This document shows, piece after piece, positions 1,321-51,726 of a stretch of 64,000 nt of DNA; position 1 is the stretch's first letter, and every line of letters starts with the position of its first letter. The notes under the pieces were generated by a model that was not told the DNA's origin, ran no database searches, and was given only the letters and a program-made list of their open reading frames with translations. This stretch comes from a virus, in the IMG/VR virus record IMGVR_UViG_3300036939_000082, positions 1 to 64,000 of that record. One strand, 5' to 3'. A program made the translations under genes and the position numbers.

Positions 1321-1962
1321 TCAGAAATAGCCTGGTAACGCCAAAAGCATTCGATAGATAATGTTATGAAATTCGTGACCAGTAAGAACCATGTTTTTTA
1401 CGTCCAACGCATGAGTGTGTAAGGGAAAACGTTGTGTAGCTCCTCTAATACCATCGCCAATTAATTCCATCTGGGCAATTGAATAACCCCCAATAATTTC
1501 TATTTCTGCTAATATTTTTATTGTTTCCCTATCGAACGGTCTTGGATTTTGCGCCCAAGCTTCGTGAAATTTTCTTTCTAACTCTTCCGAGTTCCTACCA
1601 AACCTTCTAGCTATATCTTGGACTAGCGCAATCCTTTCGGGCGATCGAGCTTCTAAATAATCAAGACGATCCGGAATGGAAGATAGTTCTGGAACTTTGC
1701 GATCTCCACATTCAATTTTTGTTAAATTTTGTGGAGCAACGGCACAAAATTTACTTTGCAAGTGAAACCAGGTACAATCTCTGCATTTATTAAGAGGATT
1801 TACACCTTCCGATAAAAATAAATTAGAAATTCTCTGTGACATAACTATATTTATTGTCTCATTTATTGCGTCAATCGCTCTTTGTCTATCAGCTATGCTT
1901 ATAGTACGTTCTGGTAGTTGTGTTACGTCATGAATCCCAAAAACTAATTTGACGTTCTGCAT
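1321..1962 (-). CDS. Hypothetical protein with Cys-rich CxxCxWF..FCAVAP..C motif
   Basis: 213-aa ORF; motif shared with the ORF at 4348-4716. Confidence 0.6.
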   Translation of the reverse strand: MQNVKLVFGIHDVTQLPERTISIADRQRAIDAINETINIVMSQRISNLFLSEGVNPLNKCRDCTWFHLQSKFCAVAPQNLTKIECGDRKVPELSSIPDRLDYLEARSPERIALVQDIARRFGRNSEELERKFHEAWAQNPRPFDRETIKILAEIEIIGGYSIAQMELIGDGIRGATQRFPLHTHALDVKNMVLTGHEFHNIIYRMLLALPGYF

Positions 1963-2003: not shown

Positions 2004-4025
2004 ATGGCTCCCAGTTTAGGTCGCGCTTCGCGGGCGATCGCCCGCCAAAAAAAGTCTAACAAAAAACAGAGAGAGAAGTTTGTCGATGAGACTGCGATCG
2101 CCCGCGAAGCTGCGATCACAGATTGGTACAGCGGAGGGGGCGATGTTTACGTACAGTGGGTCAAGGAACACCACCGAACGAGTTCTGGAGAACCTCTTTC
2201 TTGGGACGAAGTATTTTTAGAAGAGGTTTATCTGGCTATAGGGTGTCCATGGCTGGAAAAAGAAGTCATCAAAAAAGCCGCTCAAGTCGGTTACTCTGAA
2301 GGGTTGGTCGCTACAGCCGAATTTTACGCCGGCTACTTGCGATCGCCCATCGGTTTCGGATTTGAGGAACAGCAAAAACTTCGCGACATGGTTGGCTCCC
2401 GAATTCAGCCGGCGCTCGACTACTGCGAACCGATTCAGAAATTGAACCGCGACCGACACGGGGCGACGGGACGCGAAGACATTGACAACAAAACCTCAAT
2501 AACGGTTGCCGGTACAAAAATTTCGTTTTTTTACGCTTGCGTCAAGTCAAAGACTGTAGCAGAACAAGCTCCAGCCACCCTCAGATCGTTTACAGCTTGC
2601 GCGATCTTAGCCGACGAATTTAGCTTGTGGCCTAAAGGCGTTCTCGACATCGCCATCAGCCGGATGGCTGCTTCCCGGATGCCTACCAAACTTGTCCGGG
2701 CCGGTTCCACTCCCTCCTACGAAGGCTCGATTCTTGATTCTGAGATGAAGCGGGCAAAATATTCTTTTCAGTGGCTGGTGAAATGCCCGCACTGTCAAAC
2801 CGCTCAGTTTTTGGTTCCTTTTTCCACCGAAAATCAATCTGGCAATTTTTTGCGACCAGCTCTGTTCAAAGAATCAGACACAGAAGAACTGCGTTTTTTT
2901 GATATCGCCGGCAGGCCCCTGAAGTGGTTCCACCGATCGCCAAACCCAGAAAATATTGAAGATTGGCAGCTCCAGGGAGACGATAAGGAGCGGGCGATCG
3001 ATTCTGCTTACATAGGTTGTCAGTCTTGTAACGAGGAGATACCGAGGGAGGCGATCGCCGCTGGGAAATTTGCTTGTACGCGATCGGGCATTACTTTGAG
3101 AGACTTGAACGACCGGGTTACTCGCGAACGGGAAATCGTCCGCGAAACCGTAGCCCTCGAATTTCCGGTACTGGCATCTTTGCTATTTTCAGCCCCCGAA
3201 AGACTGCGGCGGTTGTTCGCTACCGACAACCCTAGAGATGAAATTCAGCAGCGCCTCGGAGAATCTATTTCTCTGTCCGGTGGCAAGATTGACTTAGGCA
3301 AACTTTTAAGCTGCGTCGGGCGATCGCATCCCGATTTTGCCGAATCCCCAACTTTAACTGTCATGGGATTGGATCAGGGGCGACCCAACTACGGAATCGT
3401 TCAAAAATGGTATTTAAATTTTCAAGGATCTAAAAATGATTGGTGGAAAACCGCCAGAGTCAATACCGTCTGGTTTGGGGAACTCGGAACCATTCAAGAC
3501 GTCGAGGCGATCGCCCTGCAATACGAAGCCGATCTGATCGGCATGGACTCGGAACCGGAAATCCAACTAGCAACGGAATACGCGCTGCTGCACTTGCCGA
3601 CGGGGGCGAGCGTGTCCAAGAAGGGCGATCGGGTCGAGAAGAAGGGGCAAGTTTACCTGTTCGATCAAGTTTCCATGAAGGAGCAGTTCAAGCGGAATAC
3701 TCGAAAAGTTAAGAGCACTGCGAAAGAAACCGAGTTTACTATCTACTCGATCGACCGCACTTTTGGACTGGATAGCGTGCGCGATCGGATCTACCGAGGG
3801 TTGTTCCACCTGCCTGAGGACCTGAGCTACAATGCCAAGGATAAAGGAAACTTTTTGTATCATTTCATTACGAGCGATCGACAAGCAAGCGGGCGGTGGA
3901 TAGAAGCACCTGGCGCACCCGACCACTACTTCCACGCAGCAAACTTTGCTGAAATGTGCGTGCTCGTTAGCTTGTTTGAACCTGGTCCGAAAGGAAAATT
4001 TGCATTTACTAGCGTAGCAATGTAG
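2004..4025 (+). CDS. terL: Terminase large subunit (lambda GpA-like)
   Basis: KKAAQVG Walker A variant, ADEF Walker B, GSTP coupling motif, CPHC zinc ribbon, GLDQG nuclease motif, C-terminal DHYFHA. Confidence 0.9.
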   Translation: MAPSLGRASRAIARQKKSNKKQREKFVDETAIAREAAITDWYSGGGDVYVQWVKEHHRTSSGEPLSWDEVFLEEVYLAIGCPWLEKEVIKKAAQVGYSEGLVATAEFYAGYLRSPIGFGFEEQQKLRDMVGSRIQPALDYCEPIQKLNRDRHGATGREDIDNKTSITVAGTKISFFYACVKSKTVAEQAPATLRSFTACAILADEFSLWPKGVLDIAISRMAASRMPTKLVRAGSTPSYEGSILDSEMKRAKYSFQWLVKCPHCQTAQFLVPFSTENQSGNFLRPALFKESDTEELRFFDIAGRPLKWFHRSPNPENIEDWQLQGDDKERAIDSAYIGCQSCNEEIPREAIAAGKFACTRSGITLRDLNDRVTREREIVRETVALEFPVLASLLFSAPERLRRLFATDNPRDEIQQRLGESISLSGGKIDLGKLLSCVGRSHPDFAESPTLTVMGLDQGRPNYGIVQKWYLNFQGSKNDWWKTARVNTVWFGELGTIQDVEAIALQYEADLIGMDSEPEIQLATEYALLHLPTGASVSKKGDRVEKKGQVYLFDQVSMKEQFKRNTRKVKSTAKETEFTIYSIDRTFGLDSVRDRIYRGLFHLPEDLSYNAKDKGNFLYHFITSDRQASGRWIEAPGAPDHYFHAANFAEMCVLVSLFEPGPKGKFAFTSVAM

Positions 4026-24480: not shown

Positions 24481-25065
24481 ATGTCTAAAATGTTAATTTC
24501 AGAATACAAGGGCTACGAAGGAATCTTTGAGTACGATCAAGATAGCGAGTTGTTTTTTGGGAATGCAATAGCGACAAGGTATCGTTCGGCAATTACCTTT
24601 CAAGGTGAGACGCCAAAAGAAGTAGTCAAAAATTTTCAGCAAGCGGTTGACAAACACCTCAGTTTATTGTCTAAGCAACAAGATAATGTTGCAAATAGTC
24701 AAAGTTTAAACCCGCAAACTATTGCAAGCACGATCGAAGATATCAAGTATAAATTAGCAGGAGTAACTCAAGGGCCTTGGCGGTGGGCAGACTGGCAAAC
24801 TGATTTCGGATCGCGGGAAGAAGAAGGACTAGAAAACAAACGAGATTTGGAATATTCACCTAGCAGGGGCGACTCTCGGGGTTCTGAAATACACGAAAGA
24901 GGGGATAAGGCTATCAAGGTTCTAAAAGTTGAAGAACCGCTAGACAACGAACAGGATGCTTATTTTATAGCCGATTCAAGGCGGGATATCGAAACCCTTG
25001 TGGCGATCGCAGAATTTCTGTTGAACGAAAATCAAAAACTAAAAGCTAAACAACCGCCAGTCTAA
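24481..25065 (+). CDS. HicB-like N-terminal domain fused to a phage Ead/Ea22-like domain
   Basis: YKGYEG...D..SELFFG....ITFQGET.KE....FQQAVD; C-terminal TQGPW ... DAYFIA.SR.DI..L. Confidence 0.65.
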   Translation: MSKMLISEYKGYEGIFEYDQDSELFFGNAIATRYRSAITFQGETPKEVVKNFQQAVDKHLSLLSKQQDNVANSQSLNPQTIASTIEDIKYKLAGVTQGPWRWADWQTDFGSREEEGLENKRDLEYSPSRGDSRGSEIHERGDKAIKVLKVEEPLDNEQDAYFIADSRRDIETLVAIAEFLLNENQKLKAKQPPV

Positions 25066-31733: not shown

Positions 31734-32039
31734 CTAGCCCAAAGGGAGTACAGTACCCCTTTTGTATGTGGGCGAATTAGAGTGAACTACGATGCCACCC
31801 CCAGCTTTCGGATCGTACACGGCGATCGCATCAAACAAATTTTTGACAGAAAGTGCAACAGCCTCGTTCGCCCACATGGGCATCCCCGACACAATCACTA
31901 CACCTCCGCCACGAACCTCCGGCACTGTAAAATTTTCGAGTTCGGCGATCGTCAGCGGGTTTTGAGCATTGACGGGATTGCCGTCTTTCAAAATCTCTAA
32001 CAGCGTCACACCGTTGTTTTCAGTCACTTTAACTTCCAT
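31734..32039 (-). CDS. csx3: Csx3/Crn3-like protein (cyclic oligoadenylate ring-nuclease fold)
   Basis: GVVIVSGMPMW ... AVYDPK.GGGIVVHS ... G.V matches the Csx3 pattern GVVISGR.PIW ... AVYDPRLGAVVV.SH ... GDV; about 100 aa. Confidence 0.75.
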   Translation of the reverse strand: MEVKVTENNGVTLLEILKDGNPVNAQNPLTIAELENFTVPEVRGGGVVIVSGMPMWANEAVALSVKNLFDAIAVYDPKAGGGIVVHSNSPTYKRGTVLPLG

Positions 32040-33476: not shown

Positions 33477-34103
33477 TCAATCTGGGTTTTGATACTCGAC
33501 ACAAATATTGCAACTTGGTAGCTTGCTTTGCAACCACGCTACATCCGTATTTTTGAGCTTATTGTCTTCAAGAAATAAGTGTTTCAAAACAGTCAAAGAT
33601 GCTAGTGGTTCAATGTTACTAATTTGATTTTGATTGAGACTAAGTACGTTTAAATTAGTCAAGGAAGCTAGCGGCTCAATGTCGATGATTTTATTGGCTC
33701 CAAGCCACAACTTCGTTATAGTCTTCAAAGAAGCTAGCGGTTTAAGATCGCTAATTTGATTACCTCCAATGCCAAGCCAAATCAAATTACTCAAGGATGT
33801 TAACGGCTTAAGATCGCTAATTTGGTTGTTTCCTAAAAACAGGTATCTCAACTTAGTCAAAGATGTTAGCGGTTCAAGATCGCTGATTTGATTGGCTCCA
33901 AGACCAAGCAAATCTAGGTCAGTCAAAAATGCTAGCGGTTTAAGATCGTCGATCTTATTATTCACAATGTAGACGGTCTTCAGATTAACTAAAGATTTTA
34001 GCGGTTCAAGATCGCTAACTTGTCTGCTTGAAATGTCAATTTCTGTCAAGGTATTCAAATCACTAAATTGATCCAAAATCTTTTGAGTGTGCTTAGCTGT
34101 CAT
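33477..34103 (-). CDS. Stand-alone internalin-type leucine-rich repeat protein
   Basis: About seven 22-aa LxxLxLxxNQISDLxPL repeats. Confidence 0.9.
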   Translation of the reverse strand: MTAKHTQKILDQFSDLNTLTEIDISSRQVSDLEPLKSLVNLKTVYIVNNKIDDLKPLAFLTDLDLLGLGANQISDLEPLTSLTKLRYLFLGNNQISDLKPLTSLSNLIWLGIGGNQISDLKPLASLKTITKLWLGANKIIDIEPLASLTNLNVLSLNQNQISNIEPLASLTVLKHLFLEDNKLKNTDVAWLQSKLPSCNICVEYQNPD

Positions 34104-34565: not shown

Positions 34566-34925
34566 TTAACTTTGCTCATTTTGTTTTTCTAAACCAACAT
34601 CAACGATCGCCAGTCGATTTAAAAAAGACTGGCGATTTTCTATTACAGATTTCCCGGTTTTTGTAATTTGATAATATTTCCGTCGTACCCCTTCTAATTC
34701 ATCGCCCCATCTAGGAGTTATCCAACCTTTTTTTTCAAATTCTCTAAGAGTTGGATACAAAGATACTGGATTGTATTTTATTGTATTATTTGTCGCATTA
34801 CTGATAATACGAGCTATCTCTAAACCATACAAGGCTTGACCGTACAGGCTCCGAAGGATAGCTTCTTCTTTGGTTGTTATATCAGAAATTTTACTATTAG
34901 GCATACTACACAGTATATATAACAA
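34566..34925 (-). CDS. PadR-family transcription regulator
   Basis: LYGLEI ... SLYPTL..FEKKGWI ... RRKYY.IT.TG. Confidence 0.85.
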   Translation of the reverse strand: MLYILCSMPNSKISDITTKEEAILRSLYGQALYGLEIARIISNATNNTIKYNPVSLYPTLREFEKKGWITPRWGDELEGVRRKYYQITKTGKSVIENRQSFLNRLAIVDVGLEKQNEQS

Positions 34926-41618: not shown

Positions 41619-42161
41619 CTAGCGATCGCCTAGAAAATCCTCAAATATTGCACCCCGTTTAATCAGATATTGCTTCATCGATTTAGAAATGACGGAGTTT
41701 GAGTTGAATCGGGCTTTCTCAACATTAGTCTGACTTAAGTCAGCACCGCTCAGGTCAGCACCGCTCAAGTCAGCACCGCTCAGGTCAGCACCGCTCAGGT
41801 CAGCACCGCTCAAGTCAGCACCGCTCAGGTCAGCACCGCTCAGGTTAGCACCGCTCAGGTCGGCATCACTCAGATCGACATCACTCAAGTTTCGATCTGT
41901 GATTCCCTGGGTAACAAGTTCTCGTACTAGATGCCACTTGTTGTTGATTTCGTTGTTATTGTCATCCTTTGAGTGTTCACTCAAGATTTGAACACTTGCA
42001 ATAGGAAAACCGCTTATTTCTTCTAATTCTCCTGACTTGATGCGAGATACAAGGCGTTTGACATATTCTTGAGAACCTTCTACCGTTAATACGGTACTGT
42101 GTGCAGGATTCTTATTTTGGTTGTCAACAATTCGATCGCCCGGAACTAATTTCTTTTTCAT
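41619..42161 (-). CDS. Pentapeptide repeat protein
   Basis: (SGADL)n encoded by near-perfect 15-bp tandem repeats at about 41735-41870. Confidence 0.9.
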   Translation of the reverse strand: MKKKLVPGDRIVDNQNKNPAHSTVLTVEGSQEYVKRLVSRIKSGELEEISGFPIASVQILSEHSKDDNNNEINNKWHLVRELVTQGITDRNLSDVDLSDADLSGANLSGADLSGADLSGADLSGADLSGADLSGADLSGADLSQTNVEKARFNSNSVISKSMKQYLIKRGAIFEDFLGDR

Positions 42162-42204
42162 CTTTGTTTAAAGTGTGGTTTTGTTTTTTTTGAGGGACGA
42201 TCGG

Positions 42205-42320
42205 CTATTCCCACCAAATTTCTTTAACAGGACGGCTCCAATCTGTTTCGGGGTGCATATTTTCTGGGGTAACTCCCTCCATTAGCTGTTCTAGTGTTGA
42301 AGGCTTTTTACGATTGTCAT
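42205..42320 (-). other. MazE C-terminal (toxin-binding) peptide coding segment; short ORF or frameshifted remnant
   Basis: Frame gives KPSTLEQLMEGVTPENMHPETDWSRPVKEIWWE*. ATG 42282 gives 25 aa; ATG 42320 is one base out of frame. Confidence 0.6.
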
Positions 42321-42378
42321 TTGTTTTTGCTTTATAGGATTACCAAGTTATTATATACTCTAATACATCGATTAGAGG

Positions 42379-42684
42379 TTGTTCTTTATGAAACGAGACG
42401 AAATTAAGCTCAGTTTTATAGAGACAGACAACGAGTCAATTAGCGAGACTTGTAGGTGCGAATTTTGCGATCGCCCTATCCGATTTTACCGATATAAAGG
42501 ATGGCTCTTTAACAACTATGTCGTTCAAAATACAGATGGTAGCGTTCACCGTCGCTGCGATCGCCCGGTAGCATGGTCGCCGTCTCGCAGGGATATTCCA
42601 GATGGCTGGGAGTATTGGCGACCCGACAGCGATGACGATCGCGCGTGTTACATCATAAAAAAGTACACTCGTTTTGAAAAGTGA
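42379..42684 (+). CDS. Hypothetical protein (CxCxxC ... HxxC)
   Basis: ORF; probable ATG at 42388. Confidence 0.5.
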   Translation: MFFMKRDEIKLSFIETDNESISETCRCEFCDRPIRFYRYKGWLFNNYVVQNTDGSVHRRCDRPVAWSPSRRDIPDGWEYWRPDSDDDRACYIIKKYTRFEK

Positions 42685-42794
42685 TCCACTATCAAAAAAT
42701 AGACCCGCATCTTTGTTTAAGAGCAATTGGAGCGGGTTTTAATTTTGGGGCGATAGCTGTGCTATTATGTCATGATACATACTGAGGTAACATC

Positions 42795-44270: not shown

Positions 44271-45299
44271 ATGAACACTCAACTGACACTTGCACTCGAC
44301 ATATTCCCCGACGCCAGTCTAACTTTAGAGCAAAAAATCGAATGGAGTTTAAAAGTTTTTGACAGTTTAGACGAAGAGAAAGAGTACCGACTTGCTTTTA
44401 GTGGAGGTAAAGACAGCCACGTATTACTCGGAATATACTTAAAGTGGCGCGAGTCTCGTCAAAAAAACTTGAAGTTAAATGTGGTCTTTTCTGATACGTT
44501 GCTAGAAAGTCAGCAGCTTTACAGTCTGATCGAATTGACAGAGAAGACTTGCAAGGCAAAAGAAATCAACTTTATTCGAGTTAAACCCTTGTTAGAACAC
44601 AATTTTTGGGTAATTCTGTTTGGACTGGGTTATCCTGTACCGAATCACAGGGTTAGATGGTGTACAAGCCGTTTAAAAATCGATCCAATGGAAAAGACCC
44701 CGGGCATCGGCATTACGGGTTCTCATTTTGGAGAGAGTACAAAAAGAGACAACAGACTAAAAAAATGCGGTTCCAACGAATGCGGTATCAATGAATTATC
44801 TAATACTGTTGAACCTTTAGCAATCTGGCGAAACTGCGATATCTGGGATTGGATAATACTGTACTCTGACAGTATTATCTATAACGGAGTAAGCAGTCAA
44901 TTATTGTCCACATACAACATAGCAGAAGATAAAAATGGGAGCTTGAGAATGGGTTGTTTTATGTGTCCCGTGATAGCTCAGAGTACAACAGTTAAATTGG
45001 TAAACGATGGCATCGTGTCTCCAATTACCCTCAAAATTCGGGAGATTCTTGAAATTTTGCGAAAAAAACCCAGGATTTTATCGCAAAGGACTAAAAAGAA
45101 TGGGGCAATTTTAGTGGACGCTAGAATCGAAGTTTGGGAAAAAATGAAACCTTTTTTTCCTGTACTTTTAGAAAACAACTGGATTCAGCCCGAGGTAATA
45201 CACTTGGTTGAAGAAATGTTGTCTAAGAGAACTTACCCCCCAACCTACAAACAAGATTGGATAAAAGAACAGGAACAACTTCTCAAAAGTTTAGACTAG
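44271..45299 (+). CDS. PAPS-reductase-family (DndC-like) PP-loop protein
   Basis: FSGGKDS, RWCTSRLKI.P, RMGCFMCP. Confidence 0.85.
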   Translation: MNTQLTLALDIFPDASLTLEQKIEWSLKVFDSLDEEKEYRLAFSGGKDSHVLLGIYLKWRESRQKNLKLNVVFSDTLLESQQLYSLIELTEKTCKAKEINFIRVKPLLEHNFWVILFGLGYPVPNHRVRWCTSRLKIDPMEKTPGIGITGSHFGESTKRDNRLKKCGSNECGINELSNTVEPLAIWRNCDIWDWIILYSDSIIYNGVSSQLLSTYNIAEDKNGSLRMGCFMCPVIAQSTTVKLVNDGIVSPITLKIREILEILRKKPRILSQRTKKNGAILVDARIEVWEKMKPFFPVLLENNWIQPEVIHLVEEMLSKRTYPPTYKQDWIKEQEQLLKSLD

Positions 45300-45389: not shown

Positions 45390-45875
45390 CTATTGCATGA
45401 TACAATTTGGCAGCGCTTTCTGAAGCGAGCTTTTTTCTTCTCGACTAATTTCATTTCCGCCAATATAAAGCTCGGCTAAGTTGTGCAGCGAGCTTAACGG
45501 CTCAAGCGTTGTAATTTTATTGCCTGACAAGTTTAACCTTGTCAGATTGGTTAATTTCGCTAGGGGTGCAACATCGACAATTTGGTTGTCGTCTAGATAG
45601 AGCCACGTCAGATCCAGCAGCGATCCCAGTGAGCTGAGGTTGACTATTTTATTTTGTCTCAAGTCTAGGTGTATCAACTTGAACAATGGTTCTAGCGGAC
45701 TGATGTCGCTGATTTTGTTTCCCTTCAACCAGAGATACATCAGGTGCGTCAATTCACTGAAAGGCTGCAAGTCCTCAATTCCTTTGTCCTCGACAGCTAC
45801 ATCCGTCAGCCTAGTGATTTCGCTGATTTTAGGTAGCTGTTCTGCCGTGTACTGGTCGGGGTATATGTACGTCAT
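45390..45875 (-). CDS. Second stand-alone LRR protein
   Basis: About five 22-aa LRRs (L.L.GNKISDISPL). Confidence 0.9.
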   Translation of the reverse strand: MTYIYPDQYTAEQLPKISEITRLTDVAVEDKGIEDLQPFSELTHLMYLWLKGNKISDISPLEPLFKLIHLDLRQNKIVNLSSLGSLLDLTWLYLDDNQIVDVAPLAKLTNLTRLNLSGNKITTLEPLSSLHNLAELYIGGNEISREEKSSLQKALPNCIMQ

Positions 45876-46734: not shown

Positions 46735-47097
46735 TTAAGTGTGTTGTGTGTCCCAAAAATTAGCTAATGTCTGAACCTCTTTACGCCATTCTGCCGTCAA
46801 ACTGTACATTCGACGGGGGCGACCGCGCCCTTCTGTCTTTTTCCAGTAGGGTTTTGTTATCCCCTCTTTCTCAAGAAAATTTAATGCGACATAAAGTACC
46901 GTATCAGAAACCTGATAAACAGGAAATTTTTCTTTCAGTTTGTCCATCAGTTCTGTTCCGTAGGAATCTCCCTCTAATAAAACCGAAAGGATGTAACATA
47001 CTGCCTCTTCTGGGTTTAGGTAAATAGGGGGTGGGAATTGAAAATATTGATAAATTTTTGCGAGGCTGAGCCGTGAATTCGTTGGGTTGTGGATCAT
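46735..47097 (-). CDS. pex: Pex-like PadR-family regulator (circadian period extender homologue)
   Basis: IYQYF..PPP.YL..E.AVCYIL.VLL.G.SYGTEL...L....P.Y..SDTVLY.AL.FLE......YWKK.EGRGRPRRMY.....W....LA..W matches cyanobacterial Pex as recalled. Confidence 0.85.
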   Translation of the reverse strand: MIHNPTNSRLSLAKIYQYFQFPPPIYLNPEEAVCYILSVLLEGDSYGTELMDKLKEKFPVYQVSDTVLYVALNFLEKEGITKPYWKKTEGRGRPRRMYSLTAEWRKEVQTLANFWDTQHT

Positions 47098-50160: not shown

Positions 50161-51726
50161 TTAGTGTTTTTGACCAAATTTTAAGTCTGCCCACGACAAT
50201 TGCTTGTCTATATTCTCTTTTGGCTTGCTAATTAACTCCTTAATTTTTTCCATGCCATCAACTCCATTGTTAACCGCTGCACTCAACTCGTGTTTTTCCT
50301 GTGCTCGCGATATCGCATCCTCCCGAGATTCTCCATTCCGCTCAAATGCTTGCTCCAAAGGCTTATAAACGTTTTTGCGATGGGGTGATAAACGTTGCTT
50401 ATCCGTCAGACTTAGCAAGCTTGCCATCAGTTCTAGGTGATTTTTGTCGTCACCACAAACCTCTTTAAGCGCTTCCCACTCTTCATTGCCAAGGATAGTG
50501 CGCTCGTCAATATGTCGAACATCTTTAAAAACTTCACCCGTCGCTTCTTCGTAAATTCGTGGCAAACTGTCGTCAAATTCATGCTTCTGTTCTAGCCAAA
50601 TCCTGCGGATTTCACTGAGTTCTTCTGGGGTAATTAAGGTGATGTCGCGCATTTCTAGGGGTGCAGTTTTGCGGATGTGAGTCTGTGTTTCTAGTACCCG
50701 TCTGAGCCAGTGTTCGCGCCAATGTCGTAGATATGGTCCTGGTATAAGTTCGACAGACGTGGTGCCGTCGTCCATCGTCTTGTCGAATAGATCAACCCTG
50801 CCGTTCATCCGTCGATAATCGCGCCGATCACGATCGTCCGGGACTTGTAGTTCGTTCCGAATATCAAGCAACGGTTGCATCCATTCTTTTTGACTGTCGT
50901 TAATAATCATTGCTTCCATCGATTTGTCTTTGCTAACCATCGTGCAAGTCCAACAACCAAACCGAGAACTACCACAGCTAGGGGTAGAAGTATCAACTAC
51001 TAGCGGGCATTCATTATCTGCCGTTGCGCCACGATACATGACAAACAGATCTTTGTTGCTCCCGCCCCACGGATTGTCAAATTGCATCAAATACATCCAT
51101 ACCTCGTCCGTGCGCCAATCTTCAATCGGAAGGTAGATAAAAGATCCAGGATTTGCTGGGCTTGAGTTTAAATGTTTTGCTACCCTGCTTTCCCTATGCT
51201 TCGCCATATTGGTGGCACGGGTAGAACTTTCAGCACTACGAGTGCCAAGTGCCAAAACAACTTGACCGCAGGTGGCGATCGACTGACGTATAAAGACCGT
51301 GGCGGGATTGATTTTTAGACGATCTGTACACCATCGAAAATTACGCCGGGGTGCTGCATACCCTTTCCCAATCAAACAAACCCAAAAAGTGTCCTGAATA
51401 GCTGGTGTAGTGACTTGAGTTACGATCGGCATTTCTTGTTCCAATGCTGCTCGCTCCATCTGCTTCAACGAACTGCGAACTTGGGCGGACACAATTGGAT
51501 TCTCCACCAGCGTGTCATTTGTGAGTACGTAGATTTTGTGGATGCGTTGATCGATCGGTAGTTGGCGGACGGCGTTCCAAATTAACTGCAAAACCGTGGT
51601 ACTATCTTTGCCTCCACTCCAACCGATGACAATTGGATTGCCCTCTAGATATATTTGCTGAATTTCTTTGGTCAGCAGTTCGATTTCGGTCATTAGACCG
51701 GGAACGGTACGGAGAGTATCTGTCAT
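50161..51726 (-). CDS. dndC: DNA phosphorothioation sulfurtransferase DndC
   Basis: WSGGKDST, RWCTDRLKI, DNECPLVVDTSTPSCGSSRFGCWTCT, full DndC C-terminus; 521 aa. Confidence 0.9.
   Translation of the reverse strand: MTDTLRTVPGLMTEIELLTKEIQQIYLEGNPIVIGWSGGKDSTTVLQLIWNAVRQLPIDQRIHKIYVLTNDTLVENPIVSAQVRSSLKQMERAALEQEMPIVTQVTTPAIQDTFWVCLIGKGYAAPRRNFRWCTDRLKINPATVFIRQSIATCGQVVLALGTRSAESSTRATNMAKHRESRVAKHLNSSPANPGSFIYLPIEDWRTDEVWMYLMQFDNPWGGSNKDLFVMYRGATADNECPLVVDTSTPSCGSSRFGCWTCTMVSKDKSMEAMIINDSQKEWMQPLLDIRNELQVPDDRDRRDYRRMNGRVDLFDKTMDDGTTSVELIPGPYLRHWREHWLRRVLETQTHIRKTAPLEMRDITLITPEELSEIRRIWLEQKHEFDDSLPRIYEEATGEVFKDVRHIDERTILGNEEWEALKEVCGDDKNHLELMASLLSLTDKQRLSPHRKNVYKPLEQAFERNGESREDAISRAQEKHELSAAVNNGVDGMEKIKELISKPKENIDKQLSWADLKFGQKH

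Follow-up and report, generated by a model that had tools for sequence, protein, structure and literature searches.

A phage genome recovered from a biocrust metagenome carries on its minus strand a short open frame that resembles the toxin-gripping tail of the antitoxin MazE. Is this stretch a working miniature antitoxin, or is it what remains of a longer gene? In AbrB-type MazE antitoxins, the tail wraps around the MazF dimer and blocks its RNase activity. The window, by which we mean the whole stretch of DNA analysed (64,000 nt), covers the opening 64 kb of an IMG/VR provirus record (IMGVR_UViG_3300036939_000082, here G000) and includes phage genes for terminase gpA, a tail or lysis enzyme (lysin), and a helicase. 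HIP1 sites (GCGATCGC), which are typical of cyanobacterial DNA, occur in the window stretches inspected. The region between roughly 31 and 47 kb is crowded with accessory genes, including a stand-alone Csx3, two PadR regulators, two LRR proteins, and DndC-like enzymes. The Csx3 family protein (31734-32039, minus strand; PF09620, E = 5e-11) is a candidate ring nuclease directed against type III CRISPR signalling. The two small leucine-rich-repeat proteins and the two PadR-family regulators lie at 33477-34103, 45390-45875, 34566-34925, and 46735-47097 (all on the minus strand), and two PAPS-reductase/DndC-like genes lie at 44271-45299 and 50161-51726. A further stretch at 111351-112031 of the record is 72% identical in protein to a PAPS-reductase-like gene (phrog_424) in another contig, L002, and the phage may thus carry three such genes.

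The frame in question is open on the minus strand from 42339 to 42208 (44 codons) and ends in KEIWWE (...TLEQLMEGVTPENMHPETDWSRPVKEIWWE), followed by the stop TAG at 42207-42205. The tail module itself (KKPSTLEQLMEGVTPENMHPETDWSRPVKEIWWE) occupies 42208-42309. When the translated frame was compared with PDB sequences (phmmer), residues 10 to 42 aligned with residues 48 to 82 of Escherichia coli MazE (E = 1.2e-4). The frame shares with E. coli MazE (PDB 1UB4 and 1MVF) and with AbrB-type MazE/PemI antitoxins the C-terminal pattern TL..L...(I/V)TPEN.H...DW..P..KE.W. A HMMER search of 1.84 billion proteins (representatives) returned 21 matches at E < 1e-3, the best at 2.9e-7, and all were limited to the tail. 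We also built a profile of the canonical tail from the last 38 residues of 26 AbrB-MazE proteins with the AbrB motif KWGNSLAVRIPK, each of which precedes a PemK gene; the window sequence was left out of this profile. Searched against the six-frame translation of the complete 188,942-b record (7,393 segments), the profile had one real match, which was 42339-42208 (E = 6e-14; 50.6 bits). A second match at 27909-27820 (E = 0.036) was spurious, being a 9-residue match antisense to coding sequence. The PDB, HMMER, and profile matches together rule out chance similarity to MazE, and the frame is a genuine copy of MazE's MazF-gripping tail.

Elsewhere, this tail belongs mostly to complete antitoxins. 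Among 43 genome loci with the tail, most encoded an AbrB domain followed by the tail, and 28 of the 33 downstream ORFs were PemK/MazF (PF02452). The window shows neither of these associations. PF04014 (AbrB) had no match at E ≤ 10 across the 189-kb record, the 44-aa frame matched no Pfam family, and PF02452 was absent from the record at any threshold tried. The gene downstream of the tail encodes a TRADD-N and pentapeptide protein rather than MazF or PemK. For candidate orphan antitoxin domains elsewhere in the window, Pfam returned only generic HTH_3/HTH_31 matches below threshold, and none for 24481-25065. Of the features that define MazE, the locus therefore has the toxin-binding C-terminal tail, in which the near-invariant Gly of PVGKE is missing, and has neither the AbrB domain nor an adjoining MazF/PemK gene. 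In these respects the sequence-only reading, which had described a MazE-like tail on the minus strand without a DNA-binding domain or MazF, was borne out. The window copy differs from E. coli MazE in being phage-borne and in having no SpoVT/AbrB domain, no adjoining toxin gene, and no intact ORF.

We scanned viral contigs with the tail alignment, which led to the locus L117 in contig G405 (188,553 b). The flanks of L117 correspond to window positions 43340-42515 and 41558-40473 at 68 to 89% identity, and between them lies an intact ORF of 220 aa (L117 1958-2620; P0022). In this protein, a helical N-terminal domain (about 130 aa) precedes a TRADD-like N module (PF20694; E = 3.4e-6; residues 134 to 174), which a short linker joins to the tail; this tail is 84% identical in DNA to that of the window. 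No MazF was present in G405. AlphaFold2 modelled the protein at a mean pLDDT of 46 from a 7-row alignment, which was too low for a fold search. A search with the 220-aa protein led to L121, L120, and further relatives. L121 is an 8.6-kb metagenome contig that reaches up to 90% identity in its flanks, which correspond to window positions 43021-42764 and 41555-39848. The L121 gene at this site (hereafter geneA) has the same N-terminal domain as in L117, a helical middle module resembling the N terminus of P0001, and a tail that ends in EIWWE, as in the window. In L120, geneA is the N-terminal domain only (130 aa, beginning MTIVKWLND), and P0001, a 96-aa protein encoded in L002, is that middle module plus the tail. 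Across these relatives, DNA identity in the tail was 81 to 84%. The L121 copy of geneA (1852-2487) is interrupted near codon 50 by an in-frame TAA (FTK*ALQ, compared with FTKEALQ in L117), a second, independent disruption of the gene, and the gene caller retained only its C-terminal 131 aa (P0026).

The syntenic relatives thus carry neither a full mazE nor nothing at this site, the two outcomes that had been named beforehand as counting against the reading; L117 and L121 instead carry a non-AbrB gene of 215 to 220 aa that ends in the tail. No tail-bearing phage protein that we found had an AbrB domain or a neighboring MazF. GeneA represents a new modular phage protein family ending in a MazE-type, putatively MazF-binding tail. 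A phage protein that carries this tail with neither an AbrB domain nor a toxin gene would most likely bind and neutralise host MazF during infection. The window copy occupies the same site as geneA, shares its leader, start, and first codons, and ends in its C-terminal tail; the N-terminal helical domain and the TRADD-N-like middle module are missing. Other searches for kin returned little: the 44-aa frame had no close relatives among proteins of 24 to 77 aa, P0001 was a singleton in a family search, the genes neighboring the locus had no close relatives in viral contigs, a DNA pattern for MEGVTPENMHP found none in viral and metagenome contigs, and an exact 50-mer of the locus was absent from genome contigs. 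The tail was present in 21 of 401 sampled cyanobacterial genomes with a best identity of 56%, and no recent donor was identified among the 401.

Next, we examined what the window has kept at the 5' end of geneA. On the minus strand, an A-rich leader, ATG 42320, and nine codons (MTIVKSLQH) closed by TAG at 42293-42291 together span 42333-42291. The 15 bases ATGACAATCGTAAAA are identical to the first 15 bases of geneA in L121, with one base different in L117; the proteins P0023 and P0024 begin with MTIVKWLND, and the window has kept the leader, the start, and the first five codons (MTIVK). Upstream, a TATAAT hexamer resembling a -10 element lies at 42355-42350 in an AT-rich block homologous to the block upstream of geneA in L117 and L121. 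Because the first 15 bases are identical to those of L121 and both the A-rich leader and the AT-rich block are homologous, ATG 42320 is the ancestral start of geneA. Its start context ranks at the 96th percentile of the ORF starts of this genome. A promoter scan found no -35 element paired with the TATAAT on the minus strand and reported a plus-strand site at 42331-42359. The hexamer overlaps a plus-strand TATACT that may serve a divergent gene, and a perfect 7-nt inverted repeat (CTCTAAT/ATTAGAG with a 6-nt spacer; 42358-42377) adjoins the -10-like hexamers of both strands in this divergent intergenic region, where it may be an operator.

The tail is out of frame with this start. The only ATG, GTG, or TTG in the 42339-42208 frame is ATG 42282, which opens a 25-aa ORF (42282-42208) 8 nt past the stop of the nine-codon ORF and maps to residues 59 to 82 of E. 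coli MazE in the phmmer/PDB alignment. One additional A in the A5 run at 42309-42305 would merge the frame of ATG 42320 with the tail frame to give 38 aa. The sequence-only reading had named the promoter-like hexamer, the leader, both ATGs, and the 38-aa product, and each of these details stood: the TATAAT can be read directly and the A-rich leader is homologous to that of geneA, the nine-codon reading from ATG 42320 begins at a start shared with L121 geneA, the frame arithmetic behind the 38-aa product is correct with the break at the A run, and ATG 42282 is the sole start of the 25-aa ORF. The length of the A run, which had been singled out for checking, was confirmed as A5 in an independent assembly of the source metagenome run (Logan), identical over 41816-42750 at a depth of 12.8 with no indel; no RNA run was listed among those that contain the stretch. 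An assembly slip in the A5 run is rejected on this contig-level agreement, at which minority variants are not visible.

The frame break coincides with a deletion junction. At the DNA level, the window starts to match the tails of L002, L117, and L121 at 42306-42311, and the apparent extension of homology to L002 upstream of 42306 (an SYK match) did not rise above shuffled sequences. The junction GTAAAAAG (42311-42304, minus strand), which includes the A5 run, has the 5' end of geneA upstream and the tail linker downstream. In L121, GTAAAA occurs twice, at codons 4 to 5 and in the tail linker, with a distance of 517 nt between the two (517 mod 3 = 1). A virtual deletion between these two copies gives the window junction ATGACAATCGTAAAAAG exactly. 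We propose that in an L121-like ancestor a microhomology deletion at GTAAAA removed about 517 nt (codons 6 to approximately 178), that is, the N-terminal domain and the middle module, and would thereby have placed the tail, shifted by one base, directly behind the kept promoter, leader, ATG 42320, and five codons. A ribosome that begins at ATG 42320 meets a stop after nine codons, and the tail frame has only the internal ATG 42282. Since the loss of 517 nt between the GTAAAA copies already shifts the frame, the frameshift most likely arose together with the deletion, and there was probably never a 38-aa in-frame peptide. This single-deletion history, the simplest one, presupposes an ancestor that resembled L121 at the 3' site, where L117 has six A's.

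We consider it likely, from the comparison with these relatives, that the window copy is a recent, non-functional deletion relic of geneA that would no longer be translated. Of the two options offered by the sequence-only reading, a minimal antitoxin mimic or its recently frameshifted relic, the second was upheld, and the out-of-frame loss of 517 nt leaves a minimal 38-aa antitoxin, whether by design or until recently, unsupported. Across the 31 codons that the tail shares with L002, we counted 10 synonymous and 6 nonsynonymous differences (dN = 0.085, dS = 0.94, ratio 0.09; P = 2.6e-4). The low ratio therefore points to purifying selection over most of the divergence, with any neutral period being short. 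On the window branch itself, the changes fell at conserved positions: P became S, H became R, DWG became DWS, and PVGKE lost its Gly codon, compared with 2 or 3 synonymous changes. The Gly of PVGKE is kept in all 16 other aligned tails, and the window tail retains every family-invariant residue apart from two glycines. That the two most conserved glycines are gone is consistent with relaxed constraint, although the counts are too small for a test. A relic is also favoured by the decay or variation of the locus in its relatives, as seen in the in-frame TAA of L121 and the L120 gene reduced to the N-terminal domain. Against a relic we counted the 44-codon open frame, the low dN/dS, and the intact promoter-like region and leader with their strong start context.

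These same features are the ground on which the best surviving alternative stands. It holds that the locus is a working mini-antitoxin, in which the leader drives the nine-codon ORF and re-initiation at ATG 42282, or a rare -1 slip on A_AAA_A, yields a 25-aa (or 38-aa) peptide able to bind the MazF of the host in the manner of AimX. In its favour, the open tail frame is conserved (dN/dS of 0.09 relative to L002), the short ORF's stop and ATG 42282 are 8 nt apart, the leader RNA is unstructured (fold z = +1.0), and the surroundings are rich in accessory genes such as the stand-alone Csx3. Published precedents also favour it. MazE C-terminal peptides alone inhibit MazF, and inactivation of the MazF dimer is reported to need no more than a 23-aa C-terminal peptide (PMC3281143, citing Li et al.); AimX, a small phage peptide with only the MazF-binding region of MazE, binds MazF (PMC10769878). 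The details of the locus nevertheless weigh against such a peptide. One out-of-frame deletion accounts for the junction, the context of ATG 42282 is poor (17th percentile of the gene starts of this genome) with no Shine-Dalgarno sequence, the 25-aa form does not include the TLEQL start of the motif, the two conserved glycines are gone on the window branch, and the short form occurred in no relative found. Programmed -1 frameshifting and transcriptional slippage are both unlikely: there is no X_XXY_YYZ heptamer, no stimulatory hairpin was seen nearby, and the fold z value is that of an unstructured leader. An A5 run is too short for transcriptional slippage. On balance, we regard a working mini-antitoxin as unlikely.

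Short tail-only forms do exist in bacteria, and they bear on the same alternative. Bacterial ORFs of 47 to 59 aa consist of a basic leader and the tail, and those that were looked up did not adjoin MazF; their neighbors were a PIN gene (P0007), an EEP nuclease gene (P0016), BrnT/CopG (P0005, in five contigs), and Phd/ParE (P0019). P0007 and P0014, of 55 and 59 aa, are orphan tail-only ORFs that occupy orthologous positions on the chromosomes of two bacteria (L004 3001-3168 and L008 3001-3180), with no MazF alongside, and at one of the two sites the PIN gene overlaps the start by 4 nt. Their dN/dS was 0.09, like that of flanking genes, which marks one orthologous pair as being under selection. 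Tail-only mini-proteins can therefore be real genes, and for this reason a mini-antitoxin in the window was not dismissed. A broader form of the idea, to which we give an equally low weighting, is that the remnant is still active: its 25-aa re-initiation peptide would neutralise a cyanobacterial MazF, the tail would be a mobile module of about 30 aa grafted by phages and mobile elements onto unrelated domains, and bacteria would keep it as orphan mini-proteins under selection. If true, the TRADD-N-like fusion would connect MazF neutralisation to death-domain-like conflict systems of multicellular cyanobacteria. Another tail-only stretch (L039/L040 2450-2635, beginning MSSARKRRRSAPLPNYNLDDLL...), apparently the same in two species, lies just before a TrwC relaxase fragment, which suggests that it is carried on a conjugative element.

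A second alternative concerns the target rather than the state of the gene. The tail of the geneA family, and hence of the ancestor of the window copy, could address a partner other than host MazF, for example a TRADD-N-linked conflict system of the host or a protein of the phage, in which case the motif would have been re-used as a generic docking peptide. Consistent with this, the tail follows a TRADD-N-like adaptor in phage proteins, bacterial non-AbrB tail proteins adjoin PIN, EEP, BrnT/CopG, ParE, or TrwC genes and not MazF, and AimX of phi3T also binds the phage protein phi3T_93 (PMC10769878). We think it very unlikely, given that the motif matches tails partnered with MazF (E = 6e-14 by the canonical profile), that MazF makes up 28 of 33 genomic downstream neighbors, and that a cyanobacterial 262-aa non-AbrB tail protein (L063) lies directly before an ORF that looks MazF-like by eye (RGD...GHEQ.GRRPA). 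That the locus is instead a decayed canonical prophage mazEF addiction module, with its AbrB domain and mazF lost, is barely credible: canonical mazE-mazF pairs occur on viral contigs (L118) and decayed pairs occur in cyanobacteria (L055), but the 189 kb hold no trace of an AbrB domain or MazF, and both syntenic relatives have at this site a non-AbrB gene with the same start codon. The L055 case is a cyanobacterial mazE ORF (1468-1731, minus strand) that continues into ...LAKLETLVT, which matches the C-terminal end of a MazF (...LAKLETLIG in L060), as if the toxin body had been deleted from a mazEF pair.

The gene immediately downstream (geneB; 41619-42161, minus strand; 180 aa) combines a TRADD-like N module (PF20694; E = 8.7e-7) with pentapeptide repeats (PF00805; E = 3e-29). 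It forms a cassette bounded by 24-nt direct repeats, with the upstream copy (TCGTCCCTCAAAAAAAACAAAACC) at 42177-42200 on the minus strand and the second at 41554-41531 (about 21 of 24 positions identical). L121 has the empty site with a single repeat copy and no geneB, and L117 has only a 30-codon stub of its 5' end (3232-3324). We considered whether the pentapeptide gene could be the conserved partner of the tail or its toxin and rejected this: no tail was found near 41 loci of pentapeptide relatives, and geneB is absent in L121. At the DNA level, the TRADD-N parts of geneB and of L117 geneA are 78% identical, and two neighboring genes may once have shared the adaptor. In run X1, short contigs at 66-94x depth matched window 41833-42090 within the TRADD-N part of geneB at about 80 to 85% identity; the biocrust sample also contains, then, a relative of this sequence at higher abundance. 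Two places in the window (41389-41348 and 29330-28969) and the stretch directly after geneA in L117 (2640-3012) share a dispersed repeat of up to about 370 nt, with 76 to 93% identity. In bacteria, TRADD-N proteins bear C-terminal pentapeptide, TPR, or HEAT repeats and belong to conflict systems of multicellular bacteria (Kaur et al. 2021, PMC8195603). The architecture described there is exactly that of geneB, and L117 geneA has the same adaptor domain. The copies here differ from those proteins in being carried by phages, and geneA adds a MazE tail after the adaptor, a combination not mentioned in the passages of that article that were consulted.

Phage mimicry of the MazE tail is already known. 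In phages phi3T and SPbeta, AimX (a small peptide) and YosL (100 to 130 aa with an unrelated N-terminal domain) share only the MazF-binding region of host MazE and come with no toxin of their own; both bind MazF, and the lytic cycle requires that MazF be blocked (PMC10769878). In arrangement, the L117 220-aa protein and the 96-aa P0001 are similar to YosL and the window remnant, if expressed, would be similar to AimX. As with those proteins, the window copy is phage-borne, MazE-like only in the MazF-binding region, and without a toxin gene. It departs from them in having no intact ORF, as ATG 42320 is one base out of frame and only the internal ATG 42282 is in frame, and the system here further differs in its cyanobacterial host, its TRADD-N-like fusion, and a MazF binding that is predicted. 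AimX and YosL copy the tail of Bacillus MazE, an antitoxin of another class than those with the E. coli/AbrB-type tail of the window. The present variant is set apart by its tail class, the TRADD-N-like fusion, and the cyanobacterial phage host. Orphan phage antitoxins offer a second comparison: cyanophage S-CREM1 carries orphan MazE, YefM, and TacA antitoxins (PMC9964418), and an orphan antitoxin of a T4-like phage defeats DarTG1 (PMC11825919). These are likewise derived from antitoxins, lack a toxin, and are proposed or shown to counter host toxin-antitoxin defence; they are reported as antitoxin genes, whereas here only a toxin-binding module of about 30 aa is found on unrelated domains.

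The window copy is probably dead, and its individual interest is limited accordingly. Its interest lies in the family to which it belongs. Our literature search turned up a single system, AimX/YosL of SPbeta-like Bacillus phages, in which experiments have established that a phage protein copies nothing but the toxin-binding tail of an antitoxin. The present locus would extend that strategy, with an E. coli/AbrB MazE-type tail, to large cyanobacterial phages. The four related phage contigs hold an intact 220-aa form, a 96-aa form, a nonsense-mutated form, and a deletion remnant, and show a gene that was built, trimmed, and broken. Such a pattern of rapid gain and loss is the expectation for counter-defence genes, and the forms of the geneA family are constructs with which one may ask whether MazF is an anti-phage defence in cyanobacteria.
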